A stretch of 64,000 nucleotides of DNA from a virus (IMGVR_UViG_2778261161_000002); one strand, 5' to 3'; shown: positions 8,483 to 61,103, counted from the stretch's first letter. Notes: a model not told the origin generated them from the letters alone. Numbers and translations: made by a program.

Positions 8483-8500
8483 TCGCCTTGTTAAGTTAAA

Positions 8501-8509
8501 TTTCTAACA
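8501..8509 (+). promoter_or_regulatory. Operator-like motif TTTCTAACA (copy 1)
   Basis: aaaTTTCTAACAtagtg upstream of ORF 8683. Confidence 0.5.
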
Positions 8510-8599
8510 TAGTGTATTTATATACACTGTTGATCCTGGTGGATGGGATCGAGTAGGATCGCGGTCACTGCTCCGGTAGCGACTGCCAAAAAAGCAAAA

Positions 8600-8620
8600 G
8601 CCGCTGAGAAGCGGCTTTTT
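8600..8620 (+). terminator. Rho-independent terminator GCCGC-tgagaa-GCGGC + T5
   Basis: Hairpin plus T-run read directly. Confidence 0.7.
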
Positions 8621-8682
8621 GGGTGTATAAATCCACTGCCATAGATTTATACGGTAGATAGATTTTTTCACGGAACTATCTG

Positions 8683-9645
8683 GTGAGTATTTTAAATTCA
8701 GTTTCAGTAACTTTCAACACTTCTGAGTATAAAAACAACACTGAATACCACAAAAAAATCAAAGGTCATCAGTTGAGTTTTTTTGCTCGTCATAGCGGTC
8801 TTCTTTCCCCTTCACATAGCGCCATTATTGCCGAGTTCGCCAACCTGGCAGGGTCTACCGATGAATACATGATCCGTCGCTCATATGCTGATATGTCCGA
8901 GATTACAGGACGCAGCATTTCTACTGTGCGCCGGGCATTTGCTGAAGCGACGAAGTGCGGAATGCTTGTTAAGCAACATCAGGTAGCGAATAACAATGCC
9001 CAGGTGTGTAACGTATATCGGTTTACGACACAATTTCTCCACTTCATTCATGTAGCAATGGAGATAGGGGGTAAGCAGGGCATCAAATTTGCCAACGCCA
9101 CAAAGCTGGTTAAGCAATTGATTTCAAAGGTACGTTATTTTTTTGAAACTGGGAACCCCCTGTTCAAATTGAACAAGTCCCCCCATGTTCAAAATGAACA
9201 GCCAATAGAAAATAAGAGTCACTCTATAGCCAAAAGAAGAGAAAGATCATGCGCGGTTCAGCCAAAGGCTTCACCAGCAGATAGTACTCAAGCGGATAAT
9301 GGGGGACTGGATAAAAAAACAGTAATCAGGGAAGAACATACCAACCACTGCCTGGCGGCGGCAAAAGCGAGAGCTGCAAAGCGTCGTTCAGACGAGGGGC
9401 ACGCAAAACGGCAGGCTCTGTATCGTACCGCTGAAAAGCTGGCAAAAAAATTTGCATGGATACGTAGTGCCGCTACCGCAGTGAATAAGCCTAAACAATC
9501 CAGTGCCCTGGATTTCTCAATGGATTATTCTGGCTCCCAGGGGTGTGTAACCATTGGTGAAGCCTTTGACCTGATGAAACAACGTGGCTATCGGTCTGAA
9601 TTTGACCGGGAGGATTGGTCAATCCCTGCGGGATTTAGGGGATGA
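8683..9645 (+). CDS. HTH DNA-binding protein, possible replication initiator (RepL-like position)
   Basis: HTH-like segment MSEITGRSISTVRRAFAEATKCGMLVKQ; operator-like motif upstream; palindromic repeats inside ORF. Confidence 0.35.
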   Translation: MSILNSVSVTFNTSEYKNNTEYHKKIKGHQLSFFARHSGLLSPSHSAIIAEFANLAGSTDEYMIRRSYADMSEITGRSISTVRRAFAEATKCGMLVKQHQVANNNAQVCNVYRFTTQFLHFIHVAMEIGGKQGIKFANATKLVKQLISKVRYFFETGNPLFKLNKSPHVQNEQPIENKSHSIAKRRERSCAVQPKASPADSTQADNGGLDKKTVIREEHTNHCLAAAKARAAKRRSDEGHAKRQALYRTAEKLAKKFAWIRSAATAVNKPKQSSALDFSMDYSGSQGCVTIGEAFDLMKQRGYRSEFDREDWSIPAGFRG

Positions 9646-9699
9646 CCTGTGTGTCTACAAAGCATCCCAATGATCGGAAAATGCTCGCTCGATGATTTG

Positions 9700-9708
9700 T
9701 GTTAGAAA
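9700..9708 (-). promoter_or_regulatory. Operator-like motif (copy 2, reverse orientation)
   Basis: ttgTGTTAGAAAAtt upstream of first immI-like module. Confidence 0.5.
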
Positions 9709-9929
9709 ATTAATTTGCTGTTTCTAAATCGGAATGTATGATCTGCATCATCGACTGAAGTCATCCATTGCTGAAATTTTTAGTTGATCTTCCATGTTTT
9801 CAGGCTTATATTCATGCCGTCGTAGCAAATTCTGCGACCAGGTTTGACAGCCTGAATGTTAGTGCGGACAACCGCAGATTTCCGATATTGCGGTATTTTT
9901 GTGTCCGTAAACCGCGTTACGCCCGAATT

Positions 9930-10030
9930 ATGGTGGGGCGTGATGGGGAGGCTTCGGCCTGCTGGTCTCACTAACGCCAGTCTGTCAACCCTGTCACGTC
10001 CTGCCACCTGTTTGACAGCGGGTAGCAGGT
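9930..10030 (+). ncRNA. Candidate c4-like antisense RNA region of immI module 1
   Basis: Direct repeats GTTTGACAGC at 9842 and 10010 flank a complementary CTGTCAAC at 9982, upstream of icd-like ORF; architecture as in P1 c4. Confidence 0.3.
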
Positions 10031-10058
10031 TGTTAAACCTGTTAGTGAGGCCGTAACT

Positions 10059-10283
10059 ATGGTTAATGCCAATCCTTGCTCACGTCCAGAATTCATCTGG
10101 CGTTTCCACTCCCTGCAAAAACACTGCGATCACTTCGCAATTGCCGCAACCGAAAAAGAAGCCCGTTCTCTGATCCCTGATCAGCATGGTGTTCTTACTG
10201 GTCGTTTCTCTACTTCCCCACAACCAAACACTAATCCCTGGTATCGCAATATTACCAATCCCGGCATTGCGGAGGCACACTGA
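10059..10283 (+). CDS. icd: Icd-like cell-division inhibitor, 74 aa
   Basis: Small ORF with EFIWRFHSLQKHCDHFAIAATEKEARS immediately upstream of and overlapping ant-like gene; paralog at 50053. Confidence 0.55.
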   Translation: MVNANPCSRPEFIWRFHSLQKHCDHFAIAATEKEARSLIPDQHGVLTGRFSTSPQPNTNPWYRNITNPGIAEAH

Positions 10284-10990
10284 TGGATATCTGCATTCTT
10301 GAAAAGCCATCAATGACCAGCATTGAGATCGCGGAGCTGGTGGGAAAACGTCATGACAATGTGAAGCGTACCATTGAAACATTAGCCGAATCCGGCGTTA
10401 TTGTTCGTCCTCAAATTGAGGATGAACCAAAAATAGATGTAATGGGGCGTTCTCGATTAATTCAGGTGTTCCGATTTAGCGACGAGCAAGGCAAACGAGA
10501 CAGTATCATTGTAGTCGCACAGCTTTGTCCTGAGTTTACTGCCCGGCTGGTGGACCGCTGGCGCGAACTGGAAGAACAAGTACGCCAGCCGTTGACCGAA
10601 ATAGAGATGATCGCCGCAATGGCTGCAAATGCAGTTCAGCAGCAAAAGCGGCTTCATGCTGTTGAGTCAAAGGTTAGCCAGGTCGCTGAAACCGTCGAGC
10701 AAATCAAGAAGGGCAATATGCCAGATGGTTACATTGGCTACCGCCAGCTGGCGGCGAAATGCGGCCTGACTGAAGCCAAATGTCGCAACCTTGTCAACGC
10801 TTACCGGATTCCCACCGATACACATGAGTTTTTAACTCCAGAGGGGGTATTGTCGCGTCGTTCCATCGTGGCCTTATCTCCCTTCATGAATGCTTTTAAC
10901 CGGATGATGTCGGAGGCTGAACACCGAGGAAAACGCTGGTATCACCCCAAAATGGGGCAATTCCAGGTGATCGGTTGGGGAGGTGAGTGA
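10283..10990 (+). CDS. ant: Antirepressor-like protein (Ant-like), 235 aa
   Basis: ATGA-coupled to icd-like ORF; shares conserved blocks GKRDSIIVVAQL.PEFTARLVDRWRELE and MP.GYIGYRQLAAKCGLTEAKCRNLVNAYRIPTDTHEFLTP with ORF 50268. Confidence 0.55.
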   Translation: MDICILEKPSMTSIEIAELVGKRHDNVKRTIETLAESGVIVRPQIEDEPKIDVMGRSRLIQVFRFSDEQGKRDSIIVVAQLCPEFTARLVDRWRELEEQVRQPLTEIEMIAAMAANAVQQQKRLHAVESKVSQVAETVEQIKKGNMPDGYIGYRQLAAKCGLTEAKCRNLVNAYRIPTDTHEFLTPEGVLSRRSIVALSPFMNAFNRMMSEAEHRGKRWYHPKMGQFQVIGWGGE

Positions 10991-11187
10991 TGGACATCAT
11001 GCAGGCGGTAAAAAAAATCAGGGAAGGACAGGCTGAAGTGTGCCGCCGTAAAGCATGGAGTGTTGGTGTATGGGCCTGGCCTGATAATTACTCTACTACC
11101 GGATGGTTTTGTATTAATGGACTCCAGATCCGGGAAGTTGATTTATCGACGGCTGATATAGTCGGTAATGATTGGATCGTGACTTGA
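10987..11187 (+). CDS. Small hypothetical protein, 66 aa
   Basis: ORF track; ATGA overlap with ant-like. Confidence 0.3.
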   Translation: MMDIMQAVKKIREGQAEVCRRKAWSVGVWAWPDNYSTTGWFCINGLQIREVDLSTADIVGNDWIVT

Positions 11188-11196
11188 AGCGTGATG

Positions 11197-11220
11197 CCCC
11201 GGCCTGGCCGGGGCTTTTTT
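11197..11220. terminator. Bidirectional terminator CCCCGGCC-tg-GCCGGGG + T6
   Basis: Hairpin and T-run between convergent genes. Confidence 0.75.
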
Positions 11221-11705
11221 CATGCCTCATTAGTTGAGGTTGCTGCGTCTCCGACTGGTAACAGAGCGGTATTGTGTGGTTCGCCAGCAGGCCAGCGATA
11301 GCCAGACACTCTTGATGTTGGGAATGCGCGAATATTAACCGCATCCCCCTGGTTCCCACCCAAGACAAGCAGATCGCCATTGGCGCGGCGTCCGACAACG
11401 AAGCCTACGTGCCCACCGCCTACGCGGGTAAATACAACGATACATCCGTATGCCGGTGTATCTAATTTCTCGCCCCAATCCAGATAGGATTTTGCCGACT
11501 CAAATCTTGTTGAGCGGATGCCTACACGTTCCAGCATTGCACCGACAAATGCTGCGCACCACGGCGTTTCATCGTCTTTAATTCCGCCGCGCTTGATGTC
11601 GCGCCAGAACTGAACGATTTCAGGGTTGTGTTTAGCGCCTTTTATTTCAGTCAGGCCAATGTGCTTACGGGCTTCAATTAGCCAGCGAGGTTCAATGTTT
11701 GCCAT
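11220..11705 (-). CDS. CHAP/NlpC-P60-like peptidase (TIGR02594-type phage protein), 161 aa
   Basis: Motif PWCAAFVGAML and downstream HVGFVVG typical of Cys-His amidase. Confidence 0.55.
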   Translation of the reverse strand: MANIEPRWLIEARKHIGLTEIKGAKHNPEIVQFWRDIKRGGIKDDETPWCAAFVGAMLERVGIRSTRFESAKSYLDWGEKLDTPAYGCIVVFTRVGGGHVGFVVGRRANGDLLVLGGNQGDAVNIRAFPTSRVSGYRWPAGEPHNTALLPVGDAATSTNEA

Positions 11706-11856
11706 ATTTTTCTCCCGGTCATGGGTTAATAAGTAGGCAAACTATGGGGAGTATGTGATTTTGACGGTAGTATCGTCCCCCTGAAAATAACATTCTCCAT
11801 ACCCTCTCAACCGTACCGCATAGCGGAATTTTTTACGGTTTAGAGGGGGAAATCCT

Positions 11857-14800
11857 TTGGACAAACTACTTCATTCAATCAGTGAAGCCTCCAGCTTAGG
11901 CGAACTGATTGAAATTGTTAGTCGGTTGCATAAATTACGTGCTGTTGCGACCTTTGGCGTCAGGAAAGCCGATGGCGTCAGTATTCAGAAAACACGCCGG
12001 GCAGCAAACAATGCCGCAGTAAATCTTCTTAATTCCCTTCCGCCCGGCTTCGATGGGGCGAAATTAACTGACGAACAACGTCAGATTCTTGCTGGGTATA
12101 CCGGTGAAGGCGGCCTGACAGATGGTGAGGGCAGCCAATACGAATACTACACGCCACAGTTTATGGCTGAAGGTATATGGGATCTGTTTGCTGACTACGG
12201 TATTGATGGCGGGCACGTACTGGAACCATCAGCGGGCACAGGTATTTTCCAGGAGACAAAACGGCAGGGCATGATAATGACCAGCGCCGAACTGTCTCCG
12301 ATTTCTGGTCGAATAAACCAGCTTTTGCACCCGGAAGACGATGTGAATATCGGGGCGTTTGAGGCGCTGGCGGCGAAAGATGCAATGTATGACCACGCTG
12401 TTGGTAACGTACCGTTTGGTGAAGGGCGTTCCGGCGTTGCCGGGCTTGATCCGGCATATGCAAACGAGAAGAACGTTGGCAATTACTTTGTGCTGCGCAC
12501 GATCGACAAGGTTAAGCCTGGTGGGCTTATCGTATTGGTGGTGCCAAATGGCATGACCGATGGTACGAAATATAAAAAATTGCGCGATAAAGTCAGCCGT
12601 AAAGCGGAATTTTTGGGCGCGCATCGTATGCCTTCCGGTACGTTCAGTGAATCAGGTACAGATACCGTGGTGGACGTATGGGTATTGCGTAAACACCCGG
12701 AAGCCTTCCTGGAGATGATCCCCGATACGGATGATTCGACGCTCAAATCGGCAAACGTCCTTTGGGATACCTTCCTCAAAGGAAAATGGTTTACAACCGA
12801 AGGGAAGCGATTTGTTTACGGCGACATGGAACGTACCAGCTTCCGCAATACCCTGGTGGTGAAAAAAGACGGTCGTGTATCCAATGAGTCGATGAAAACC
12901 GCGCTATCTCGTCGCTTTGATAGTCGCATCAATTGGGATTTGCTCGGCGTAACTACTCAGGCATGGCAGGGCGCGAAAGTGGGCGATAAACGCCTTGTAG
13001 GCGGTATCTGGCATGAGTTTGATGGTCTGAAATGGGTTAAGGACACGACAACCAAATCCTCCGCGCTTGATGTAAGTCGATATGGTGTTTCGACGTTTGG
13101 CGATCTGCAGATCGCGTTCCAGTCAACAAACGGGATTCTGGCTTTGTCATGGGACCAGATATCGGCGATCGCGTCCGACTATCCATCGGTTGTCAGTGAT
13201 GAAGTGGCAGCAATGATTCGCTTTGCTGGCAAGCAGCGAGAAAAAGACAGGGAGCGCGTTATGCGCGGTGCACTGATAGGTCAGTTGATCAACAAGGCAC
13301 TTGATTTGCGTAACCTGGGGGTGAACGTTGATGACAAACTGGCAGATGCATCCCGCCTGGCGGCAGCAGAAGTTGCGAAGTATGGACCACCGCACGCGAT
13401 TAAGCTGAATGGGCTTGCTGAAGCTGGCGCTAAAAACTGGATGACGTTCACTGGCAATGTGAAACAGGATGGTTCCACTTCTGACCTTCTGGCAGGGCGA
13501 CTTGATGTAACGGATGGTGCTGCCGGTATTGACTTTACGCGTCCTGAACAAGTGATAGCACATCTTTTTAGTGATGTAGCCCTTAATCCTATAACGCTGG
13601 GCGACTTTCGTGAGGCGTTTGCTGGTGAACTGCCAGAGGACGACGACGCGGCCCTTGAATACCTGGCGAAATTTGATGATATCGCTATTGATGGGTATGG
13701 CTGTCTGCTGCCGATGGACCGCGCCACCAGCGGCGATGTTGCAACCAAAACAGCACTGCTGGTGGGTTGGCGTGATGCGTCAACAGGTGAGCAGAAAGCG
13801 AACTTTGAGCGTCAGTTGGCGAAAATCGAAGAGAAACGCATTTTCACGCCACTAAATAAAGTCACCGTTAATCTGAACGCCCGCTGGCTGGATCGCCGCT
13901 TGATAAAAGAGTTCCTGGCAGAGCAGGGCTATGACGAGTTTAAGTACACTGAACCTGATCTGAAGGTCGTCGATGGCATTCTGGTATCTCCGGACGATTA
14001 CGAAGGTAAGGACGGGGTATTTACCGGCTATCAGCTACGAACCGTAAACGGCAAAAACGGGAATGAGTTCAAGAAGGCCAACAATAAAGACGGCTTCCTG
14101 AACCAGTTAGAAAACTACCTGAACGGTGTTAAACCGCGTGGGCAGAACGCTAACGAGTACCTGGATAAAATTGCTCAACTGGAAGTTAGCTTTAACGACT
14201 GGTTACGCACTCACCCGCAGGCTGATCAGATAGCCCGCGAGTATAACGACGCATTCAATGGTTTCATTCCGTTCACGCATTCTGACGCACCGCTTGGCCT
14301 GGAAGGGATTAGTGGAAAGCGCATTCCTCTGACTTATCAGAATGAAGAAGTTCGGCGCTTGTCAGAAGATGGGCGCGGCATCATGGGATTTGGTACCGGG
14401 CTGGGTAAAACCACGACCGCGCTTGCGCTTGAGGCGTATAACTTCGAAACAGGTCGCACTAAACGCACGTGTATTGTTGTTCCGAAGGCGGTTTATCAGA
14501 ACTGGTATCACGAGGCACAGAGTTTCTACAGTGCTGATGCCTTCGCCAATATGATGTTTATCGGTTTGGATGAAGTTCGTGATGACAGCGGAAATATTCT
14601 GACCGCGCCGGTGCTTGATGAAAATGGCGAACCACGCCTCGACAGTAACGGGCAGCCTCTTACCAGAAATGTTGTGAAAGAGTCCGCCAGCGCCGTTATC
14701 GTTCAGCGCATGAACATGATCCCGTCGTCAAATTGGCGAACGGTCATCATGACAAAAGAACAATTCGCGTCTATCCCGCTACGAGAAAAAACCATCGAGG

Positions 14801-18693: not shown

Positions 18694-18729
18694 CAGATAA
18701 GGAGCGGCCCCAACCGGGGCCGAATTTGA

Positions 18730-19164
18730 ATGACGACACTAATTGACACTGTAAAACCGACGGAATCCTACCTTGAGGACATTTTGCCGCAGGCGCTCAA
18801 TGGCAGGAGTGAAGAGGCGTTTCTGGATGCATATCTGAATGGCATGGTGGAAAGGCTGAAACGAGATCCACAGCTTTATCACCTTTATGGGCCGTGGTGG
18901 CCTGCGCTTAAAACGTTATTGCTGGAGCGCGGCGACATATCATTTGGACAAGTTGTAGATAGTGATGTGGCAGAGATCTACAAAATGAGTCGCCCGGCGC
19001 TTACGGTTTTGGCTGGGCATCTGTATTCGAGCGATCGCCTGGAAAATGACGCGGTATACAATCCTGTTCATGCTCTGGAAGTCGCACCTTATGCCGATGA
19101 TACAGAGCCATACGTGTACACAAGTTACGACGAGTCTATAGAGAAATATCGAATCATGGGGTAG
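18730..19164 (+). CDS. Hypothetical protein, 144 aa
   Basis: ORF track. Confidence 0.45.
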   Translation: MTTLIDTVKPTESYLEDILPQALNGRSEEAFLDAYLNGMVERLKRDPQLYHLYGPWWPALKTLLLERGDISFGQVVDSDVAEIYKMSRPALTVLAGHLYSSDRLENDAVYNPVHALEVAPYADDTEPYVYTSYDESIEKYRIMG

Positions 19165-19166
19165 CC

Positions 19167-19427
19167 ATGCGAAAGAATCGTAGGTTTACGGTCGAAGACC
19201 TAAAGGAATATTCCATATCGAAGGGGTATGTCCTTGAGTTCCACCGATACAAGAAGGTTTTTACGCTGCGAAAAGCAGAAAACCCCGCGAACTGGAGCTG
19301 GGTATACTTTCCTCACACCGATGATAAGTTGGTAGAACTTGTTGATGATTTAACCTATGAAGGTTGGTTGATCGCAATCGACAAGACAATCAAAGAATTA
19401 TCCGAACAGGATAAAATAACCCTTTAA
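19167..19427 (+). CDS. Hypothetical protein, 86 aa
   Basis: ORF track. Confidence 0.4.
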   Translation: MRKNRRFTVEDLKEYSISKGYVLEFHRYKKVFTLRKAENPANWSWVYFPHTDDKLVELVDDLTYEGWLIAIDKTIKELSEQDKITL

Positions 19428-19563
19428 AAATAACAGGTTGGGTAAATGCCATGCGATTTACCCTCCTTGTTGATTAAGGTCACTCTTTACTCTAAAAGCA
19501 AATCCGACCTGTTGCATATAGACCATCCTTGAGTAGTATCTCTCTTGTTTTATAAATCTAACG

Positions 19564-20058
19564 TTGTTGTTATTATTTCGCATATTTACTATCAATAGGT
19601 GTGTTAGAAAAATAGCGCGAAAGAGAAGGCGTCGCAGTGAATATTCTGAAACATCCCCACATGCCGCAGCTCTTAGAGAACTGGAGAAAAACCCAGATCT
19701 AATCAAAAGGAACCATGAGCATTACGAGCAGGTTCGCGTCCTGGACTGGTTGTATCGCAATATGCGTTATGTGTATGAGCATACTCACGCCACTCCAAAC
19801 GGTGGCCTGCGAGGCATAAGGACGGCAATAAAAATGGTGGCAGAGGGCCAAAAGAAGGGATATCCCGATCTTTCTATAGACCTTGCTTGTGGGGGATACC
19901 ACGGAATGCGCATTGAGATGAAACATGGGAGAAATCGCCTGACTCCCGAACAACTCGTCTGGATGACCCGCCTCACTGAAGCCGGTTACTACTGCTTTGA
20001 GGCGCGCAGTGCCGCTGAAGCCATAAAAGCTATCACGGAGTATGTTTGTCTTGATTAA
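19564..20058 (+). CDS. VRR-NUC domain nuclease-like protein (5' end uncertain)
   Basis: HATPNGG ... KGYPDLSIDL ... RIEMKHGRNRLTPEQ pattern of VRR-NUC. Confidence 0.55.
   Translation: MLLLFRIFTINRCVRKIARKRRRRSEYSETSPHAAALRELEKNPDLIKRNHEHYEQVRVLDWLYRNMRYVYEHTHATPNGGLRGIRTAIKMVAEGQKKGYPDLSIDLACGGYHGMRIEMKHGRNRLTPEQLVWMTRLTEAGYYCFEARSAAEAIKAITEYVCLD
19602..19610 (-). promoter_or_regulatory. Operator-like motif (copy 3)
   Basis: ggtgTGTTAGAAAAatag; lies inside 5' part of annotated ORF 19564, suggesting the true start is downstream. Confidence 0.5.
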
Positions 20059-20072
20059 ACGGAGAAATCGTT

Positions 20073-20273
20073 TTGCGTTTACTTAACGTGGCAGAACTTA
20101 TCCCTGCAGGAACTAATGCTATCGCTCGTCGTCGCTCATGGCAGCAGGCTCTATGTATTGAGATCTCGAAACGTATCAATGGAAGTTTTGAAGCTCGCAA
20201 TATTGTTACTGGCGATAAGGTTCACATAACCCCGGAAAGTGCAAGCGCTGATGATTGGGAGTTTGTGCATTGA
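20073..20273 (+). CDS. Small hypothetical protein
   Basis: ORF track. Confidence 0.35.
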   Translation: MRLLNVAELIPAGTNAIARRRSWQQALCIEISKRINGSFEARNIVTGDKVHITPESASADDWEFVH

Positions 20274-20569: not shown

Positions 20570-20575
20570 TTGCAT

Positions 20576-20603
20576 AAAAACCCGCCAATTAGCGGGTTTT
20601 TTG
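20576..20603 (+). terminator. Rho-independent terminator CCCGC-caatta-GCGGG + T6
   Basis: Read directly. Confidence 0.75.
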
Positions 20604-20644
20604 TTTATTGCATCTTCCGATACCGTCATCAAACTAATAAAATA

Positions 20645-20653
20645 TGTTAGAAA
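20645..20653 (-). promoter_or_regulatory. Operator-like motif (copy 4)
   Basis: atatGTTAGAAAAct upstream of ORF 20668. Confidence 0.5.
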
Positions 20654-20667
20654 ACTAATTTAACAAA

Positions 20668-21795: not shown

Positions 21796-21893
21796 GGAGA
21801 TCGTCGTCAGGAAATCATTGACGCTTGCCGGGTATGGGCGAACGAATGGGATAAGAAGAATGGGGGGGTAGAAGATCTTTATGGGAAATAATG

Positions 21894-21902
21894 TGTTAGA
21901 AA
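21894..21902 (-). promoter_or_regulatory. Operator-like motif (copy 5)
   Basis: aatgTGTTAGAAAtcta. Confidence 0.45.
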
Positions 21903-22049
21903 TCTAAAATCACAATTCGAATGTATTGATTGTGAAGATAACTTAACATAGAATTTTCCTTGCTGGTGGGCGGTACCCACGTTTCGCTTGCTGGGCTTGA
22001 TAGTCACTTATTGGTTATTGTTCTCCCACCAGCATTTAACAAATTAAAG

Positions 22050-22058
22050 TGTTAGAAA
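22050..22058 (-). promoter_or_regulatory. Operator-like motif (copy 6)
   Basis: aagTGTTAGAAAAata. Confidence 0.45.
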
Positions 22059-23125
22059 AATATGGTAATACAAGAGCACGCTTTGGCACCGTGCAGGCCA
22101 AAGTTCAGCAGGTTTAGTGCGGAAAGTGGTTTCAGAGAGAGCACTTTGCGGAGTAAACGACAATACATGTTGAGCCACGGAAGGTCTTTTTAAGGTGTTC
22201 ATTGATGATGGTCCGGCAGAGAGTAACGGTACATGCTGTATCTAATCATCAATGCACATCTTCAACATTAAGGAGGCATAGGGATTTTTGTGGCGGTTAC
22301 CTTTTGCCCTGAGTCTCCTTAATGTTGCGGTAATGCACCTATGCGGATGTGGCCTTGCATTGTGTCTTGAAAGAATGGGGTAAGGCCGGGGATATCCCCA
22401 GGGGGAGGCACCCCCGCTGCAACGAACAGCCACAGACGGCAGTCGAGTGATGGAAACGTGTAAAGACTTTAAACCTCGTTACGGCTGGCGTGGCAAACGC
22501 GACAACCGAGACAGAGCGGTGACGGGCGGAGAGAGTGCCGCATCAAGAAAGAAGCCGACTTGTGATCCCTTTCTGCGGGCATTTGAAAGTGAATCCAGCT
22601 CAGGCAGTCGGCTTCTTTCTTGTGTGAGATGTAGCGTATTTGCCCATCTTCGGGTGGGCTTTTTTAGGGTTTTCGTCATGGTTAGCGACTTTGCGGCGGT
22701 TTAGAAACCGACCATTAAAGTAAATGCAAACGATGATCTGATGATGGTAGCGGCCTAAGAAGCCTGACGCCACGGGGTATGAGTCGTCCCCCGTCAAAAA
22801 ATCGACCGCAGAGTGTCCCCGTCTGTGTATTAGGGAACGGGGAGGCATAACAGGCAAGGGCGCTGGTGTGATTAACCAGATGAATGAGAAGGGTCAGGTC
22901 TTTCTGGTCAGCGCCCTTACCTGTTACGTCCCTCCAGCGTAACAGCCATTGCTTGATGGCACCCTGGGAGAATTTCTTGTAACGGGTAAATCCCGTCATG
23001 CTGAAGGCGCTAATCACGCTGGAAGCCAGGGTTATGCATCCCCTGTTACCGAATTGCAGCCAGGGCGCGATGCGCCGAAAAGCATACGGAGGTGGAAGCC
23101 CTCGCCGGAGACGTACCCGGCAAGT

Positions 23126-23202: not shown

Positions 23203-23204
23203 AT

Positions 23205-25548: not shown

Positions 25549-25940
25549 TGTACGGGACTACCAAATTAAGCACTCAACAGGCCACCAATATGGAGTGGTC
25601 TATCGCTAACTGTAAGATCGTGTCATGCAATGTCACGCGTACTGATGTGGGCCATAAAAGCACTATAACAGGCTATCTAGTAATGACCACCAGGGGGATG
25701 AGGGTTAGATTTCGCTGGAAAGCAGAGCAAGTAACGCCATTCAGAGAGCCATCAATGCCGCTGCAGGTTGAGCAGGATTATCTATGTTTACCAGAAATAG
25801 ATGGAGGAATGCTGGTGGAGTCTGATGGTAGTAAGGCTGATTTTGAAGCCAATTTGAAGCTGGCACAGGCCGTAATCAATAGTTATCGCGGAAAGTGGAT
25901 CGCAAAAGTGAAACATGTTGTTCGTTTGTCTCGCTGGTAG
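25548..25940 (+). CDS. Hypothetical protein, 130 aa
   Basis: ORF track; ATGA coupling. Confidence 0.45.
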   Translation: MYGTTKLSTQQATNMEWSIANCKIVSCNVTRTDVGHKSTITGYLVMTTRGMRVRFRWKAEQVTPFREPSMPLQVEQDYLCLPEIDGGMLVESDGSKADFEANLKLAQAVINSYRGKWIAKVKHVVRLSRW

Positions 25941-25961
25941 CGTTAGATATTTAATATTAAT

Positions 25962-25970
25962 TTTCTAATA
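25962..25970 (+). promoter_or_regulatory. Operator-like motif variant TTTCTAATA (copy 7)
   Basis: aatTTTCTAATAtaatc with partial inverted partner cGTTAGATA at 25941. Confidence 0.4.
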
Positions 25971-26048
25971 TAATCATCTTTTTACCAGTCTATACAGTTT
26001 TAACATTCTCATTATCATCCCCTCGGTCATTTCCTGCCCGGGGGATTA

Positions 26049-29337: not shown

Positions 29338-30375
29338 TTACCAGAGCTTCGCGGCGTACTGCGTTTGGGGGAATGTGTATCCGTAACGTTCTTCGATTGC
29401 TTTGCCGTATTTTTTACGAGCTTCATTCAGTTTAATGCCGGTCAGGTCGTCTCCAGAGGCCATCATTACGTCTAACAATTCCAGATCCATTTTATCCAGC
29501 CTTGCCATTGCTTCACGTGATGTACGTATCTTACGTTCAATGATATGGCGAATAGCCGGATCGGCATCCTCCAGCATCTTAGCGGATTTCTGCTTAAGGC
29601 TTTCATTGCGAATATCGATGTTCCTTAAGATGTACGACTTCGCAACGTAGCTTGGCTGGTGTTTTTCCAGGTCACGAACACGATATAAGTTAAAATCGCC
29701 GAGAAGGCTGCAAGGTACCGATTCGACGCCAGAATAAATTGTAATGCTCCGGCGTTCACCAACATTATTGACAACGGGGATCGTTGTCTTCGGTAGTCTT
29801 GCGAAAACCAATGCGCCATGTGCGCCAACTCTAAAGCGAGAAAGGGCATTGCTGCCTTCGATGTTTGTTGTCAGCACAACATCTGTATATGCCTCTTTAC
29901 GCGCCCGGTAGATCTCGCCTTCAGGCTCAGCTTCAAAGAAGCGCTGTTCTTCTTCAAGAGCACCTACGATTTGAGAAAAAACCCTATTTTTCAGGCTTTT
30001 CTTTATGATTTTGTCGTATTTTTTTAGCAATTGTTCACGTGTAAATGTACGTGTTGTTGTAGCGCTTTGCACAACGACATGCGTGCTTTGATTGGTGTCC
30101 TCAATGATGAATGGGATCGGAGAATATACAGACTCAACAATGTTCGACGCTTTGCCGTCGGCATCGCGGCACATGTCAACGAAGGCTTTCCATTCAGCAA
30201 GACATTTTTCAGCTTCTTCTAATATGTTTTGGTCATGCGTTAATGCAACATGGCGGAATTCCTCGCCAGCATAACTGGTATCATGGAAAACAGAGTTTGC
30301 GACCACCAGCTCTTTCCACCGTTCAGCGGTTTGCAGGAACCGTTTGTACTCTTTCTCGATCGACTTCTTACTCAT
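29338..30375 (-). CDS. Putative C1-like immunity repressor, 345 aa
   Basis: Position between pacB and lox/cre as in P1; operator-like motif 20 bp upstream of its start; no family motif verified. Confidence 0.4.
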   Translation of the reverse strand: MSKKSIEKEYKRFLQTAERWKELVVANSVFHDTSYAGEEFRHVALTHDQNILEEAEKCLAEWKAFVDMCRDADGKASNIVESVYSPIPFIIEDTNQSTHVVVQSATTTRTFTREQLLKKYDKIIKKSLKNRVFSQIVGALEEEQRFFEAEPEGEIYRARKEAYTDVVLTTNIEGSNALSRFRVGAHGALVFARLPKTTIPVVNNVGERRSITIYSGVESVPCSLLGDFNLYRVRDLEKHQPSYVAKSYILRNIDIRNESLKQKSAKMLEDADPAIRHIIERKIRTSREAMARLDKMDLELLDVMMASGDDLTGIKLNEARKKYGKAIEERYGYTFPQTQYAAKLW

Positions 30376-30394
30376 TATTCCTACTCGATTTAGT

Positions 30395-30403
30395 TTTCTA
30401 ACA
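30395..30403 (+). promoter_or_regulatory. Operator-like motif (copy 8) at promoter of repressor-like gene
   Basis: agtTTTCTAACAtaaaatt; partial second copy TTTTAGAAAA at 30477..30488. Confidence 0.5.
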
Positions 30404-30584
30404 TAAAATTACTATGACAAATTTATGTCGAATAACAGAGTGAGTAAAGGATCGAACTGTGATTTTTTGTCATCAATTTTAGAAAACCAACCGTAGAAAC
30501 CACACTTCGCAAATTAAAGACCATGAAGGCAACGTGTTACTGGTCATCATCAATCTATGATGGATTTAAAAAAATCGGCATTTT

Positions 30585-30769: not shown

Positions 30770-31798
30770 ATGAGTGAATTAATTATCTCTGGCAGTTCCG
30801 GTGGTTTTCTGCGCAACATTGGCAAAGAGTACCAGGAAGCCGCAGAAAACTTTATGCGGTTCATGAATGACCAGGGGGCTTATGCGCCGAATACTCTGCG
30901 CGACCTCCGGTTGGTGTTTCATTCCTGGGCGCGCTGGTGTCACGCTCGCCAGCTTGCCTGGTTTCCGATCTCACCAGAAATGGCCCGCGAGTATTTTCTT
31001 CAGCTGCATGATGCCGATCTGGCTTCGACCACCATTGATAAGCACTACGCCATGCTGAACATGCTGCTTTCGCATTGTGGCCTTCCGCCACTTTCGGATG
31101 ATAAAAGTGTTTCTCTGGCTATGCGGCGCATCCGGCGCGAAGCGGCAACTGAAAAAGGCGAACGAACAGGCCAGGCTATACCGCTTCGGTGGGACGATCT
31201 GAAACTGCTCGACGTCCTGTTGTCCAGGTCAGAACGGCTGGTGGACCTGCGCAACCTGGCTTTTCTCTTTGTTGCATACAATACGCTGATGCGTATGTCG
31301 GAAATATCGCGTATTCGTGTAGGTGATCTGGACCAAACAGGTGACACTGTCACGCTACATATTTCACACACGAAGACAATAACGACCGCCGCCGGGCTTG
31401 ATAAGGTGCTTTCCCGTCGCACTACCGCTGTGCTGAATGACTGGCTGGATGTTTCCGGGCTTCGCGAGCATCCTGACGCTGTGCTGTTCCCGCCGATACA
31501 CCGTAGCAATAAGGCCAGGATCACGATAACGCCCCTTACTGCACCTGCAATGGAGAAAATATTCAGCGACGCCTGGGTGTTGCTGAATAAAAGAGATGCT
31601 ACGCCAAACAAAGGAAGATACCGGACGTGGACCGGGCATAGTGCACGCGTCGGGGCCGCTATTGATATGGCTGAAAAGCAGGTGTCTATGGTGGAGATCA
31701 TGCAGGAAGGAACCTGGAAGAAACCGGAAACACTTATGCGGTATCTTCGCCGTGGCGGCGTGTCTGTGGGGGCTAATAGCCGCCTGATGGATTTGTAA
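30770..31798 (+). CDS. cre: Cre-like tyrosine recombinase, 342 aa
   Basis: Blocks WFPISPEMAREYFLQL, NMLLSHCGLPPLSDDKSVSLAMRRIRRE, IRNLAFLFVAYNTLMRMSEISRIRVGDL, WTGHSARVGAAIDMA, LMRYLRR align with P1 Cre including catalytic R, H, R, W, Y. Confidence 0.85.
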   Translation: MSELIISGSSGGFLRNIGKEYQEAAENFMRFMNDQGAYAPNTLRDLRLVFHSWARWCHARQLAWFPISPEMAREYFLQLHDADLASTTIDKHYAMLNMLLSHCGLPPLSDDKSVSLAMRRIRREAATEKGERTGQAIPLRWDDLKLLDVLLSRSERLVDLRNLAFLFVAYNTLMRMSEISRIRVGDLDQTGDTVTLHISHTKTITTAAGLDKVLSRRTTAVLNDWLDVSGLREHPDAVLFPPIHRSNKARITITPLTAPAMEKIFSDAWVLLNKRDATPNKGRYRTWTGHSARVGAAIDMAEKQVSMVEIMQEGTWKKPETLMRYLRRGGVSVGANSRLMDL

Positions 31799-31804
31799 AT
31801 TAAA

Positions 31805-31813
31805 TTTCTAACA
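31805..31813 (+). promoter_or_regulatory. Operator-like motif (copy 9)
   Basis: aaaTTTCTAACAcatct just after cre stop. Confidence 0.45.
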
Positions 31814-31871
31814 CATCTTTTTAGATTAACATCTTTGCTGTAAAGTACCCTCGCCTATTTAGGAGGGTGCT

Positions 31872-43970: not shown

Positions 43971-44012
43971 AATGCATACCGACTCTGTTTTGTTCCGAGC
44001 GGTAAAATAATA

Positions 44013-44021
44013 TGTTAGAAA
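44013..44021 (-). promoter_or_regulatory. Operator-like motif (copy 10) with inverted partner TTCTAAC at 44034..44041
   Basis: atatGTTAGAAAActaaaatcaatGTTCTAACg. Confidence 0.5.
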
Positions 44022-44068
44022 ACTAAAATCAATGTTCTAACGCATTTTTGAGTGCGTAAGTGATTTGA

Positions 44069-48417: not shown

Positions 48418-48584
48418 AACATAAGCACTGCGAAAAGCTCAATACCAAGTTCAAGTAGCGCCAACGCCCCGAAAAACAACACATAGAACAGGCCAATCTC
48501 ATTCACAGATGGCTGGTGGATCGCACTTAAAGCTATAAGCATCATGTCCTCCAAACAGTTATCAGGAATGATATTAATGTTTTG

Positions 48585-48593
48585 TGTTAGAAA
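48585..48593 (-). promoter_or_regulatory. Operator-like motif (copy 11), promoter region of leftward operon
   Basis: tttgTGTTAGAAAAtcaa. Confidence 0.5.
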
Positions 48594-48662
48594 ATCAATT
48601 TTGAATATCTAACTGTTTTGATCAATCATAGAAAAATAGCTGAAAAGTAAGAGGCAGCCATC

Positions 48663-49241
48663 ATGCAGAAACAGAGCTATTGGGAGAAACAGAGACAAAA
48701 AGCCATGCAAAAATTGGCTGACCCAGCCTGGCGAGAGGAACAAAGGGCAAAGCGCCTTCAACAAGCTCAACGCCAGCAGCAGCGAGCGAGAGAAAAAGCC
48801 GCATCGCCTGAATATCGGCAAAAGAAAATTGAAAAAGCAAAGCAATATGAACAGCGGAGAAAAGATAAAGCTGTATCCGCTCCGCCCAAAAAAACACGCA
48901 CGTCACGCGGCCTGAAGGGCAGATCACTCACAGCCGATGAACGCCGGATACAGACCGCTATCGGTACTCTCCCCTGCATTGCCTGCCATATTCACGGGCA
49001 ACATAGCCCAGTGGTATCCCTGCACCATATCTTCGGGAGAACGGCAGAGAACGCACATAAATATGTCCTCCCTTTGTGTAAATGGCACCACCAGTACGCA
49101 GCGCCAGCCGAGGTCCGAGAACAATATCCCTGGCTGGTCCCTGTTCATGCTGATGGAAAAATAGGCGGAAAAGCAGATTTCATACGGCACAATGCCGATG
49201 AAATGGCGTTGTATCAGATGGCGATTGAATTAATAAATTAG
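48663..49241 (+). CDS. Ref-like HNH endonuclease with basic disordered N-terminus
   Basis: K/R/Q-rich N-terminal 90 aa then CIACHIHG ... HHIFG ... CKWHH metal-binding pattern. Confidence 0.5.
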   Translation: MQKQSYWEKQRQKAMQKLADPAWREEQRAKRLQQAQRQQQRAREKAASPEYRQKKIEKAKQYEQRRKDKAVSAPPKKTRTSRGLKGRSLTADERRIQTAIGTLPCIACHIHGQHSPVVSLHHIFGRTAENAHKYVLPLCKWHHQYAAPAEVREQYPWLVPVHADGKIGGKADFIRHNADEMALYQMAIELIN

Positions 49242-49242
49242 T

Positions 49243-49251
49243 TTTCTAACA
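49243..49251 (+). promoter_or_regulatory. Operator-like motif (copy 12)
   Basis: agtTTTCTAACAtttta. Confidence 0.45.
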
Positions 49252-49879
49252 TTTTAAGTTGAATTGTAAATTTCTCCGATGTACATTCACTACCGATTGG
49301 CACACCGGTCAACTTTTTGAGACAAACTGTTTAGTTTTTCGTATTATTGCCCCCGCCATACCTATGGCGGTGCAATATAGGTGGCTGAAAAGCCCCCGTT
49401 GACTCACGGTGTTCCAGCCTTTATTGCGCCGCCACCAGACCGTGGAACAGTCGATGGCGGCTCCGAAAGCAAGGAGTCACTACACTATGAACAACTACAG
49501 TCTTTTCCCATCACTCGTCGTCCACCACTCACGCGATAATCTGCATTCTTTATTCGCGCTGGGGGAGTCAAAATGACTGTTCGCTACCTCAACTTTCAAA
49601 TCAAGAACATTACTGGCGGTTGCTATGACTGGTTTGTCACTCTCGGAAAAGAAGTGATTACCGGGAAGCTGGATGAAGTGAAAGCTAAAGCAATGGCCTA
49701 CGCCTGCAAGCAAGCCCGGAAGAAATCCGCCAAAGCATAAAATACTGACTGTTGCGCCCTGGCATTATCGTGGGGTATATTTCTACGGCACCTTAGAAAA
49801 ACGGGTGCCGGGATTGGAACCCCGGATAATGCAAAAGGCGACACAGACGCCGAAAGCGTCTTTTCTTGTGTCATGCCAT

Positions 49880-50030
49880 CGCACAGCCATACGTAGCGTT
49901 TAGCTCAGAGATCAATGGTAGTGCTGGCTGGGCTGCCGAAAGGCAGGCCGGTTCCCTTTTGCGCCGGTAGTTCCAACCCAGTCAGTGCTACCGCCATTGA
50001 GATTGGAACCTCACGCGGTAGCTCCTTAAA
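49880..50030 (+). ncRNA. Candidate c4-like antisense RNA region of immI module 2
   Basis: GATTGGAACC at 49812 and 50001 with partially complementary GTTCCAACC at 49970; tRNA-like TAGCTCAG segment. Confidence 0.3.
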
Positions 50031-52974: not shown

Positions 52975-53206
52975 TGCACCGTTCCTTCATGCAATCAAAA
53001 TGACTTTTATGTTATAAAAATAATCAGCCAAATCAACATGATTTAGGCCAAATTTCTGTCAAAAAATAAAATCCACAAAAAGTGGTTGACACTATTTTGG
53101 AAATCACAAACTGCACATAATCCATCGCGCTAACGGCTCCCGTTGAAGGTTCTTTTGACGATTAACTTTCAGCCGAAGCGCGGTAGGGAGTCATAACGCC
53201 AAAGCA

Positions 53207-53911: not shown

Positions 53912-54224
53912 TCACATTAGTAGCTTTGTTAACTCCCTCAATACCAGGTAGAAGAGTAACAAAAATATTGACGCAAGTATTTGCGTGGTCAATGAGGCGT
54001 TCATAAACAGATCAATAAGCTTTAACAATTCTAGAATAACATCCATGTCATTCACTCCGTTTAATTTTTAATCTAATGCCAGCAAATGAAGCTGGCCCCC
54101 GCATAAAGATTAATGAAAGTCACTTGTCACCAGTGAGGGGATCCCTGAACTGGTGGCCTGTCTGTTTCTCGCATTTCACACCCTGCATACAGTTTCCCCC
54201 AGGTTATGACTGAGAGGCTTTGTT

Positions 54225-58646: not shown

Positions 58647-59410
58647 CTTCAAATAAAACCCTCCTGGCGCGAACAGGTGAATGGCAAACCTCACGCACAG
58701 GAAAATTCCAGACCACGGGCTTTGAAAGCGTGGATAACGCGTTTGCTACGCTAATCAGCAATATCTTTTCTGATATCTTACTGGTGGCCCCCGCGCCGGA
58801 AGAAAAACGCTTTGCGTCATTCCTGAATCGTCCACCAGCAGAGCGTGTCTATGTGGCCCGTTTCGACAATGCGATCGAGTTTCTTAAAGCAGTTCGTCGC
58901 GCAAATGCCGGGCAAGGGAGAAAACCTGAAAACCAGAACATTAACCGGGATGCTCTCCCCCTGGTCAATATCTCACGCACTATGGATATCAATTATATCA
59001 ACGATGATCAGCAGATTGACCGCAAAAAAGTAGCCAGTTTTTGCGAACCGGATACCGGAATGCCTTTAGCAGAACTGGAATACACCCAGGCCATTCTGAC
59101 GTATGACGTTACGTTAATGGCAACTGATAAAGCGACCATGAGTCTGATGTGTAATTCGCTGGGCGCACGGCTTCGCCTGATGACAGGTACACAATTTGAA
59201 GCAACCACTCACCTTGTTCGTGTCCCGGTCCCGCTGATTTGCTCGATACAGGATGCCAAAGAAGTCGGATTTACGGATGTTTCGGCACCAATTGGAGAAG
59301 AGCGTATTTATGCCACACAAGCGCCGATAAGTGTGATTGCAGACGTGATCACAGCATGGGAGTTGGACGCAAAACGTATTATTACCGAAACCTCGATATC
59401 TATGGGGTGA
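58643..59410 (+). CDS. Hypothetical protein (possible virion structural), 255 aa
   Basis: ORF track; ATGA coupling. Confidence 0.45.
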   Translation: MTSNKTLLARTGEWQTSRTGKFQTTGFESVDNAFATLISNIFSDILLVAPAPEEKRFASFLNRPPAERVYVARFDNAIEFLKAVRRANAGQGRKPENQNINRDALPLVNISRTMDINYINDDQQIDRKKVASFCEPDTGMPLAELEYTQAILTYDVTLMATDKATMSLMCNSLGARLRLMTGTQFEATTHLVRVPVPLICSIQDAKEVGFTDVSAPIGEERIYATQAPISVIADVITAWELDAKRIITETSISMG

Positions 59411-59413
59411 TAA

Positions 59414-60394
59414 GTGGCCCAGGAGTTACAACAATATTTTCTACAGTCAGTGCTCATTAACGATAACAAAGTGCCACGAGACTGGATTTTTACCGCAGTA
59501 TATGTAGAAAAAACCAGCCTCAAAGCCCCTTTGCTAAAACTGGAAATTCATGACGCTACCGGCACCGTAATTGATGACTGGAAAGCCAAATACGGTGCAT
59601 CGCTGGTGGCTGAAATGGGCGATCCAAACGGTAATGTAGGCACTTTTAAAACAGATTTCTTTGTTACGTCTGCAATGCTGGCTGGTGATGTTGTTACCGT
59701 TATTGCTGTCAGTGAAGACGTGCGCAGGTTTAAGATCCCCTCCCCGCGCACAAATTTACATACCAACAAAACACCAGACGCTATATTCAAGGCATATTCC
59801 GGCAAGCTTAAAATTACCAGCAGCGTGCTAAAACGCGCAGTTACATATCATCTGAATGCTGGTGACAAACCGTCAAAAATGCTTTCGGAGATAGCGCGAG
59901 ACAAAGGTGCATTGTGTTGGGTATGTCGGGGGGAATTTAACTTTTACACCCTGGCTGATCTGATGAAGCAAACGCCATCATTTACCTACGAGGGGAATAA
60001 CCCTAAAGCAGAATACACTTTGTCAAAAATGCGCCTACTCCAACAGGAACATGCGTCAACAGCAAAGAATCAATATCGTTTTGTTGGGTATTCCATGACC
60101 GATGGCTACGTCGAATATGGCGATAGCTCACTCCCAGTGCGTTATATATCCGACTCTGATATGGAAACTCTTCGCAATATGCAGCTGTCTCTCGTCCCCA
60201 AAATGGATATAGAAGTCGCAGGCAATCCTGATATAAAACCGGGGATGGTAATAGAGATTATCGTATACCGCTATGACCAGGAAAACCGCATTGATGAATC
60301 AATGCCCCGTAAGCTGATAGTAAAAAATGTTGCGCACTTTGAGGACCGCGTAGGCTACACAACACGAATGATATTGGGAGTGCCGAACAAATGA
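59414..60394 (+). CDS. Hypothetical protein (possible baseplate component), 326 aa
   Basis: ORF track; coupled to spike-like gene. Confidence 0.45.
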   Translation: MAQELQQYFLQSVLINDNKVPRDWIFTAVYVEKTSLKAPLLKLEIHDATGTVIDDWKAKYGASLVAEMGDPNGNVGTFKTDFFVTSAMLAGDVVTVIAVSEDVRRFKIPSPRTNLHTNKTPDAIFKAYSGKLKITSSVLKRAVTYHLNAGDKPSKMLSEIARDKGALCWVCRGEFNFYTLADLMKQTPSFTYEGNNPKAEYTLSKMRLLQQEHASTAKNQYRFVGYSMTDGYVEYGDSSLPVRYISDSDMETLRNMQLSLVPKMDIEVAGNPDIKPGMVIEIIVYRYDQENRIDESMPRKLIVKNVAHFEDRVGYTTRMILGVPNK

Positions 60395-61044
60395 AGCGTA
60401 GAGCGCAAATTGTTGGAACTGTGCACCCGGCAGGGCTTATGCGTGCTCAAGTCCGTGTTTTACCTGACTGGAATGGCGTTCCTGATGACGATCTACCCTG
60501 GGCGGAATACCAGTTACCCATCGGGAACGCTTTTGTACCTACAGTCAAAGGTGACCTGGTCTGGGTAGAGTTTCCTTATTTAGATGTTAACGGTCGAATA
60601 GACACCAGACGCCCAATGATAGTTGGTGCCGCTCAGGATGCACCGGGAGGAATTCCAAACGTTGCACCAGAAGCATCTGGCAAAGGCAACGGCTGGACGC
60701 CGCCGGAAGTAGATGGAGCACCTCCCCGCCCCCAAATCTCAGCAACGAAAGACTTCGTTATTCACCGCAACAATATTCTTGAAGTACGAACTGCTGGTGG
60801 CGGCTATGAAATTGCCAATACGGCAGCTGGCTCAAGGATTGGCATGAATGAGTCCGGGCAGATATATATCATTGGTCCGGCTGATGTAATCGTGAATGCA
60901 GGAGGGAGTGTTAACGTCAAATCAGCCAACAACATCAATGTTAATGGGGAAAATATAGCTGTCACCGCTAACGGGGACATAGCTTTCAAGGCAGGAGGAA
61001 CCTTTCAGGCCACTGCTGGCAACTTCGATTTCAAGAAAGGATAG
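60391..61044 (+). CDS. Baseplate spike/gpV-like protein
   Basis: N-terminal OB-like GDLVWVEFPYLDVNGRIDTRRPMIVG and C-terminal beta-helix-like repeats VNAGGSVNVKSANNINVNGENIAVTANG. Confidence 0.55.
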   Translation: MKRRAQIVGTVHPAGLMRAQVRVLPDWNGVPDDDLPWAEYQLPIGNAFVPTVKGDLVWVEFPYLDVNGRIDTRRPMIVGAAQDAPGGIPNVAPEASGKGNGWTPPEVDGAPPRPQISATKDFVIHRNNILEVRTAGGGYEIANTAAGSRIGMNESGQIYIIGPADVIVNAGGSVNVKSANNINVNGENIAVTANGDIAFKAGGTFQATAGNFDFKKG

Positions 61045-61081
61045 AAAATGCACCCATTTATGTTAGATAATTAACATGCAT

Positions 61082-61090
61082 TTTCTAACA
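61082..61090 (+). promoter_or_regulatory. Operator-like motif (copy 13) with inverted partner TGTTAGATA at 61061..61069
   Basis: tttaTGTTAGATAattaacatgcaTTTTCTAACAtaaat immediately upstream of rdgC. Confidence 0.5.
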
Positions 61091-61103
61091 TAAATGGTGA
61101 GAC

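Follow-up and report, generated by a model that had tools for sequence, protein, structure and literature searches.

The present study analyzes a dispersed, asymmetric sequence motif in a 64-kb stretch of viral DNA (IMGVR_UViG_2778261161_000002; the whole 64,000 nucleotides are called the window here), which is a D6-like member of the P1 supercluster of phage-plasmids. Comparison of the sequences makes it very probable that the copies of the motif serve as operators for the D6-type C1 repressor encoded in the same element, forming a P1-type regulon with a distinct DNA specificity. A regulon of a C1-like repressor had been proposed in an initial annotation of the window, and computational support for it now comes from the homology of C1, synteny with P1 operators, tracking of the motif along lineages and resemblance of the motif to the P1 operator, with C1 as the binder that we infer. 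An E. coli plasmid (CP057047) is 100% identical to the window and is the window's own replicon, and phage D6 (MF356679 / NC_050154; immC region AY753669) is 97–99% identical across the c1 region. Gene content follows D6, with lydAB, darA, prt-pro, repL, immI, darB, pmg genes, transfer RNA (tRNA) genes, lpa, pacAB, c1, rox, dre, dut, phd/doc, a long leftward early operon, ref, a second immI, mat, tail genes, and hrdC-dcm-dmt, although some D6 open reading frames (ORFs), e.g. orf23 and orf24, are not in the window. In P1, C1 binds 22 dispersed operators with the asymmetric 17-bp consensus ATTGCTCTAATAAATTT and has Coi, Lxc, and Ant as modulators (PMC8546580).

The 9-bp core of the motif, TTTCTAACA, occurs in 12 exact copies in the window against 0.58 expected, and none of 100 dinucleotide-preserving shuffles reached this number (shuffle maximum, 4), which confirms the observation made in the initial annotation. 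Copies were found at every coordinate first given for them (plus strand: 8501, 30395, 31805, 49243, and 61082; minus strand: 9700, 19602, 20645, 21894, 22050, 44013, and 48585), together with a variant core, TTTCTAATA, at 25962 and inverted partner cores at 44034 and 61061. When the 12 exact copies were aligned, columns outside the selected core were conserved as well (A at −8, TTA at −5 to −3, T at −1, Y at +9, A at +10, T at +16), and because these flank positions were not used in choosing the sites they provide independent evidence of conservation. The full element is thus an asymmetric 19-mer, AaaTTArT-TTTCTAACA-YA (e.g. AAATTAGTTTTCTAACATA as a consensus site). Information content is at background beyond −8 to +10, the single T at +16 excepted, and the flanks of the sites are unrelated. 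A position weight matrix (PWM) built from the aligned copies, with Markov simulations as background, gave 18 sites at 13 loci in the window at ≥12 bits (about 0.9 in simulations) and 14 at ≥15 bits (0.1 in simulations), adding the weaker sites 19548, 25941, and 53010, all on the minus strand. An unbiased screen for 8-mers common to many intergenic regions returned TTTCTAAC as the top motif in the window; as a positive control, the same screen on P1 ranked the known C1 operator, TTGCTCTAAT..., at the top.

At orthologous sites in relatives whose C1 is 70% and 80% identical, 169/171 core positions (98.8%) were conserved, compared with 73% in the adjacent 30 bp on each side (Fisher p=3e-19), showing that the cores are under purifying selection. 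Identity of the 19-bp element against 150-bp flanks was a poor discriminator (87% vs 84%) because flanks of that length are largely coding, and that comparison was replaced by the test of the core against its immediate flanks. These results bear on whether the motif is instead a chance or compositional artefact, a mobile dispersed repeat, or a site for a host factor of the IHF, Fis, or H-NS type. Such explanations could draw on the A/T-richness of both the motif and intergenic DNA, and on the 12-mer, whose count at ≤2 mismatches exceeds that of shuffles only about two-fold (21 vs 10.9). We give them hardly any weight. An artefact would not account for a count that no shuffle reached, nor for a core so much better conserved than equally A/T-rich flanks, and a host factor would not account for the absence of the motif from P1 and other enterobacterial P1-like plasmids that have the same hosts. 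A dispersed mobile repeat resembling a miniature inverted-repeat transposable or repetitive extragenic palindromic element was rejected, as homology does not extend past the core of about 19 bp and the flanks are unrelated.

The window is about 86% coding, and every site is intergenic or leader-proximal, as follows.

8493..8511, plus strand: operator-like site, 27.0 bits; repL lies 174 bp downstream; corresponds to P1 OrepL (former Op53)
9698..9716, minus strand: operator-like site, 30.0 bits; follows repL by 55 bp and precedes the a1b1/C4/icd/ant module immI-1 by ~90 bp; counterpart of P1 Oc4 (Op51) and Orlf (Op55); its edge touches a weak −35-like hexamer
19546..19564, minus strand: weak site, 14.9 bits, upstream of pmgM; overlaps promoter-like 19549–19576
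19600..19618, minus strand: operator-like site, 21.5 bits; lies within the pmgM leader, after terminator 19440–19463; counterpart of P1 O26 (Op82)
20643..20661, minus strand: operator-like site, 30.0 bits, between the pmgR terminator (20576–20601) and the pmgS start (20668); counterpart of P1 OpmgRa/b
21892..21910, minus strand: operator-like site, 26.0 bits, heading the tRNA block; promoter-like TTGATT-17-TAGAAT (21926–21954) follows after 16 bp; nearest P1 counterparts Oban and OpmgT
22048..22066, minus strand: operator-like site, 20.4 bits, ~100 bp downstream of promoter-like 21926–21954, which it flanks together with the preceding site
25939..25972, both strands: bivalent operator-like site (inverted pair, N16), halves 13.6 and 22.5 bits, ahead of lpa, which starts at 26049; counterpart of P1 Olpa (Op94)
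30387..30405, plus strand: operator-like site, 27.0 bits, 12–30 bp upstream of the c1 start codon; P1 Oc1/Op99 sites also lie upstream of c1
31797..31815, plus strand: operator-like site, 28.5 bits, extending over the dre stop codon and 59 bp ahead of orf117-orf116-dut
44011..44044, both strands: bivalent operator-like site (N16), halves 27.4 and 13.5 bits, between ppp and pdcB in the leftward early operon
48583..48616, both strands: strong site, 27.1 bits, with a degenerate inverted partner (N16), between the long leftward operon and ref; counterpart of P1 Oref
49235..49253, plus strand: operator-like site, 27.8 bits, overlapping the ref stop codon, upstream of immI-2 (isrK-like, C4, icd2, ant2); position of P1 Omat, at the end of ref
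53008..53026, minus strand: weak candidate site, 12.9 bits, between simB and mat; present in D6 too
61059..61092, both strands: bivalent operator-like site (N16), halves 21.3 and 22.9 bits, between gene 5 and hrdC(rdgC)-dcm-dmt; counterpart of P1 Odmt (Op68)

The initial annotation had described every copy as intergenic or promoter-proximal. With an ORF mask this holds for 11 of the 12 exact copies, which fall within the 12% of the window that is intergenic (binomial p ~8e-10), so that the motif is less frequent in coding DNA; the twelfth, 19602, is inside only the TTG-extended 5′ end of the pmgM ORF, a doubtful extension given that other annotators start pmgM about 140 bp downstream. Two points of that account need correction: site 30395 has c1 20 bp downstream of it, with dre (the cre homolog) at a distance of 367 bp, and site 31805 comes after dre and not ahead of it. 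Site 30387..30405 is accordingly positioned as a candidate autoregulatory operator of c1.

A second explanation is that the motif is itself a promoter element, either a sigma-70 −10-like TAACAT with upstream A/T or a box for the late activator Lpa. TAACAT does resemble a −10 hexamer, several sites have TTGnnn 16–17 bp upstream, and the sites occur at the heads of transcription units. Nevertheless, we regard this as very unlikely. In half of the sites the C at +9 (TAACAC) removes the essential last T of a −10, and five strong sites (9700, 19602, 20645, 21894, and 22050) are antisense to all neighbouring genes, which is acceptable for operators (of the 15 P1 operators listed, 5 have minus-strand orientation amid plus-strand genes) but not for promoters. 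The sites also keep clear of the late structural operons (lydA-darA, prt-pro, pacA, genes 26-25 and 7-5). By our own −35/−10 scoring, moderate hexamer pairs overlap or abut most sites; a strict sigma-70 consensus scan put promoters on or beside only 3–4 of 13 loci (19549–19576, 21926–21954, 25991–26018) and gave fewer matches than shuffles (16 vs 22.8 for 8300–26200, 11 vs 26.5 for 30300–49500). Given the antisense sites, the C at +9, and this sparse overlap, identity as a sigma-70 core element was rejected. P1 late promoters, which head the operons for late morphogenesis and lysis, have a −22 box like AAGTGACT situated 4–5 bp upstream of the −10 hexamer, and this P1-type pattern had 8 matches in the window against 3.4 expected, with none at motif sites. 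The box differs from the motif and is neither enriched here nor coincident with the sites, and an Lpa-dependent late-promoter identity was likewise rejected. Terminators at 19440–19463 and 20576–20601 directly precede sites 19600 and 20643, which is consistent with new transcription units starting there.

Some other transcription signals were observed in the same regions. The best strict sigma-70 match, TTGGCA-16-TATAAT (11/12), is inside rox at 30599–30626 and is directed toward dre. Near repL the best match is TTGAAA-17-TAAAAT (10/12) at 8717–8689 on the minus strand, at the repL start, and is followed by a minus-strand terminator at 8619–8596, predicting an antisense RNA of about 90 nucleotides across the repL leader (8588–8717) with three hairpins (−31 kcal/mol, z=−5.4). 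This unit resembles the annotated P1 antisense promoter PaskilA (former P53as), which is downstream of OrepL.

The presumed binder is encoded close to one of the sites.

29338..30375, minus strand: c1, D6-type primary immunity repressor, 345 amino acids, candidate binder of the motif; 100% identical to D6 C1

This ORF and P1 C1 both match phrog_1678 along their entire lengths (E=2.8e-170 and 2.6e-140, respectively), and pairwise BLASTP between them gave 21% identity over 240 amino acids (E=2e-8). We relied on PHROG and pairwise BLASTP because other searches gave no link: C1 had no match among Pfam or Protein Data Bank (PDB) sequences, and tblastn of C1 against 50,697 phage records found D6 only and did not reach P1. 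This sequence similarity makes the product of ORF 29338–30375 a genuine, if distant, homolog of P1 C1. The order of genes, pacA-pacB-c1-rox-dre, also agrees, and the repressor gene adjoins pacB and a cre-type recombinase gene as in the P1-type family. P1 C1 (283 amino acids) covers positions 1–280 of the 347-position phrog_1678 profile, and the D6-type C1 (345 amino acids) and homologs from Citrobacter, Leclercia, and Pantoea (344–358 amino acids) are full length on it. P1 C1 appears to be C-terminally shortened by about 65 profile residues; in the window, the C-terminal part of c1 is at 29338–29650.

If the motif is bound by C1, its sites would be expected where P1 has its C1 operators. Positions of the latter were taken from annotation of the P1 RefSeq record, supplemented by a consensus scan of P1, and are as follows.

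P1 Oref: upstream of ref
P1 Omat: at the end of ref
P1 Ossb: upstream of ssb
P1 Oc4: upstream of c4-icd-ant
P1 OrepL: upstream of kilA-repL
P1 Orlf: directly after repL
P1 Odmt: upstream of uhr-hrdC-dmt
P1 Obanab (bivalent): heads the tRNA/tciA/ban operon
P1 O26: upstream of pmgL-pmgM
P1 Oppp: upstream of pmgN...ppp
P1 OpmgRa/b: upstream of pmgR-pmgS
P1 OpmgT: upstream of pmgT
P1 Olpa: upstream of lpa
P1 c1 operators: several sites upstream of c1

Locus by locus, about 10 of the 13 window loci coincide with an annotated P1 operator at an orthologous gene (repL, c4-icd-ant, pmgM, pmgR/S, the tRNA block, lpa, c1, ref, mat, and hrdC-dmt), while 31805 (after dre) and 44013/44034 (between ppp and pdcB) have no P1 counterpart. 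The characteristic P1 target set of repL, immI, lpa, ref, the dmt operon, and c1 is therefore present in position, with sites upstream of the orthologs, and the array itself has at least 10 asymmetric copies of about 17 bp that are non-coding and in both orientations. What is not shared is the operator sequence. The P1 consensus at ≤3 mismatches had 17 matches in P1 and 0 in the window, while TTTCTAACA had 12 exact copies in D6 and 0 in P1, where the D6-motif PWM found only two weak matches (14 and 17 bits). The P1/P7 consensus was thus not found in the window and only a TCTAA-centred resemblance is left. The likeness to the P1 C1 operator that was first noticed does stand, at a modest level: PWM alignment of D6 against P1 placed the two in the same orientation with TCTAA in register (p=0.013 vs column shuffles). 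Because the window has the repressor, the sites, and the target set of a P1-type system and not the P1 operator sequence, a distinct immunity specificity is suggested, and the window element and P1 are presumably heteroimmune.

D6 carries the same site set, with 12 exact copies of TTTCTAACA and 18 PWM sites; operators are not annotated in the D6 records, in which c1, dre, and rox are. D6 also has one more strong site (24.6 bits) at about 54,201–54,219 (L002 8201–8219), between the major capsid gene 23 and orf52 and beyond the part covered by the window. In c1-centred 41-kb plasmid regions, TTTCTAACA occurred in 10, 11, and 13 copies where C1 was 90%, 80%, and 70% identical, respectively, and in 0–1 copies where the C1 homolog was only 28–30% identical. 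PWM density was 2.8–3.7 per 10 kb in D6-type elements compared with 0.10 per 10 kb in 193 kb of P1 and distant relatives, so the frequency of the motif is not matched in unrelated or distant DNA. The D6-type c1 is carried by 149 plasmids in PLSDB. Within the D6 type, there were too few cases to call whether operator variation (e.g. T vs A at position −1) goes with C1 divergence. A degraded remnant is provided by pK91 from S. Typhi (NZ_CP029871), a conjugative IncFIB resistance plasmid with a D6-like fragment broken by IS26 that contains hot, humD, phd/doc, dut, dre, an intact c1 (68% identical), and a truncated pacB. Only two c1-proximal sites (18557 and 19971) are kept in pK91, with none in its non-phage DNA.

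It could be that the sites are truly regulatory and are bound by another phage-encoded protein, such as the product of a helix-turn-helix or "DNA-binding" ORF, a protein of the antirepressor family, or a second repressor that was not recognised. The element does encode further putative DNA-binding proteins, and tracking along lineages would look the same for C1 and for any other lineage-specific protein. We nonetheless judge this improbable. The sites match annotated P1 C1 operator positions locus by locus, the motif has the orientation and TCTAA register of the P1 C1 operator, the site 12 bp upstream of the c1 start persists with c1 in the degraded plasmid remnant, and in the P1 annotation such a scattered set of asymmetric sites is recorded for no other regulator.

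Inverted pairs had first been described at two loci, 44013/44034 and 61061/61082. Both are present, although there are four such loci and not two (25942 at lpa, 44014 between ppp and pdcB, 48586 at ref, and 61062 at hrdC), all with an identical GTTAGA-N16-TCTAAY spacing in which the 21-bp register is about two helical turns and the A/T-rich 5′ tails face each other. The N16 spacing was the same in every pair found in D6 and three relatives. Relatives have consensus-like sequence at the half-sites that score low in the window (25941, 25962, 44034, and the partner of 48585) and in both halves of the 44011..44044 pair, and the 48583..48616 pair is a perfect palindromic pair in two relatives (L006 and L008). 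The suggested likeness to P1 operators that loop is loose, as the bivalent Oban (Obanab) of P1 is a single convergent N8 pair and the pairs here are divergent.

A further dispersed motif was found in P1-like plasmids from Citrobacter, Leclercia, and Pantoea (NZ_CP099368, NZ_CP042508, and CP009882), in which a C1 homolog of 344–358 amino acids, 28–30% identical, adjoins recombinase and terminase genes. The 8-mer screen in the Citrobacter/Leclercia lineage gave TTCTAAGG, extended to TAGATTCTAAGG in Leclercia, and the dispersed intergenic motif may be written (TAG)ATTCTAAGG, again with a TCTAA core. Copies were at the following positions.

NZ_CP099368: 5778, 13546, 13617, 15159, 18377, 19886, 26035, 26215, 29272, and 39800
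NZ_CP042508: 4070, 9475, 19209, and 24322

These are syntenic with P1 and D6 operators. Copies lie ahead of c1 and of rdgC, follow the recombinase gene and pro, and are found around ref, and in the Citrobacter lineage they include the positions of window sites 31805 (after dre) and 61061/61082 (upstream of rdgC). The D6-motif PWM had no matches in this lineage, and its fetched regions had no close inverted pairs. All three pairwise PWM alignments among D6, P1, and this lineage had the same orientation with TCTAA in register, and by sequence the Citrobacter/Leclercia motif looks like a third operator specificity class. A broader and rather doubtful possibility, which we raise tentatively, is that the C1 family of the P1 supercluster comprises at least three co-evolving specificity classes on a TCTAA core (GC-TCTAA-TAAA in P1, TT-TCTAA-CAYA in D6, AT-TCTAA-GG in Citrobacter/Leclercia), in which the D6-type C1, retaining the C-terminal region of about 65 amino acids that P1 C1 lacks, might bind as a pair on divergent N16 operators, a mode not described for P1 C1. 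The family would then be a natural specificity code for a repressor fold without a solved structure.

Should C1 be the binder, regulation could proceed much as in P1. One C1 molecule would occupy each 19-bp asymmetric site in either orientation, and the sites head early or lytic units, namely repL, both c4-icd-ant modules, lpa, ref, hrdC-dcm-dmt, pmgM, pmgS, the tRNA block, the dre-distal dut operon, and the ppp–pdcB junction. Bound C1 would stop initiation or elongation by host RNA polymerase, so that lytic replication, antirepressor synthesis, and late-gene activation would be off in the lysogen and the plasmid prophage state would be maintained, and c1 would be autoregulated through the site directly upstream. 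The N16 inverted pairs may serve as higher-affinity or cooperative bivalent operators that confer stronger repression.

Several observations weigh against this interpretation. The support is comparative, with binding and effects on expression predicted, and the genomes co-diverge with C1, such that the tracking would fit C1 or another lineage-specific factor alike. No homolog of Lxc (the Bof co-repressor) or Coi (the C1 inactivator) was detected: tblastn of P1 Coi and Lxc against the window gave best E-values of 3.5 and 0.11, at a length where proteins might diverge past detection; the ORF after ulx, which has the position of lxc in P1 (region 18730–19427), showed no Lxc similarity; and the 395 bp between c1 and dre (30376–30770) held only rox and short frames, with no Coi homolog. 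The bivalent geometry differs from that of P1, and operator orientation at orthologous loci is not conserved between P1 and the window element. No general overlap of operators and promoters is seen in the strict scan, and occlusion would depend on the weaker hexamers of our own scoring. PWM similarities involving the Citrobacter/Leclercia lineage were not individually significant (p~0.12). Remaining doubt over the C1 regulon concerns binding itself, the separation of C1 from other lineage-specific factors, and the weak promoter predictions.

The window has two separate immI modules. In each, a C4 antisense RNA matched through Rfam precedes icd and an antirepressor gene, and the latter differs between the two.

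9806–9858: c4-a1b1 RNA of immI-1 (Rfam), downstream of site 9700
9926–10011: C4 RNA of immI-1 (Rfam), downstream of site 9700
49788–49866: isrK-family RNA of immI-2 (Rfam), downstream of site 49243
49911–49998: C4 RNA of immI-2 (Rfam), downstream of site 49243

Apart from the motif, the Chi sequence GCTGGTGG was at 45 positions in the window (e.g. 7868, 10336, 13758 ... 63403) compared with 1.57 expected, and Chi-containing 9-mers were the most over-represented words in every P1-supercluster sequence examined, P1 included.

Full-text literature searches for the motif or for D6 operators returned nothing relevant, with the D6 genome and immC papers outside their coverage, so an earlier listing is possible. 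The D6 genome is reportedly the subject of Gilcrease & Casjens 2018, D6 immC of Sauer & McDermott 2004, and the P1 genome of Lobocka 2004. D6-like phage-plasmids are widespread in E. coli, Salmonella, and Shigella, and the operator consensus and site map predict for them an immunity group (heteroimmune to P1), a repressed early regulon, and an autoregulatory site, and supply concrete targets for reporter, chromatin immunoprecipitation, and induction studies. Three operator classes together with three diverged C1 lineages could be used to map specificity determinants in a family without a solved structure, and could supply orthogonal repressor-operator pairs beside the Dre/rox and Cre/lox tools from the same region.

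Compared with known systems, the regulon proposed here is the expected counterpart of the P1 immC system with a different DNA specificity, and not a new kind of system. Like P1, the window element has a homologous repressor and many dispersed, asymmetric sites of about 17–19 bp in both orientations, in monovalent and bivalent forms. Unlike P1, its consensus is AaaTTArTTTTCTAACAYA rather than ATTGCTCTAATAAATTT, its bivalent sites are divergent N16 pairs at four loci rather than a single convergent N8 pair, there is one strong site upstream of c1 where P1 has several, its C1 is 345 rather than 283 amino acids, and it has two immI modules.

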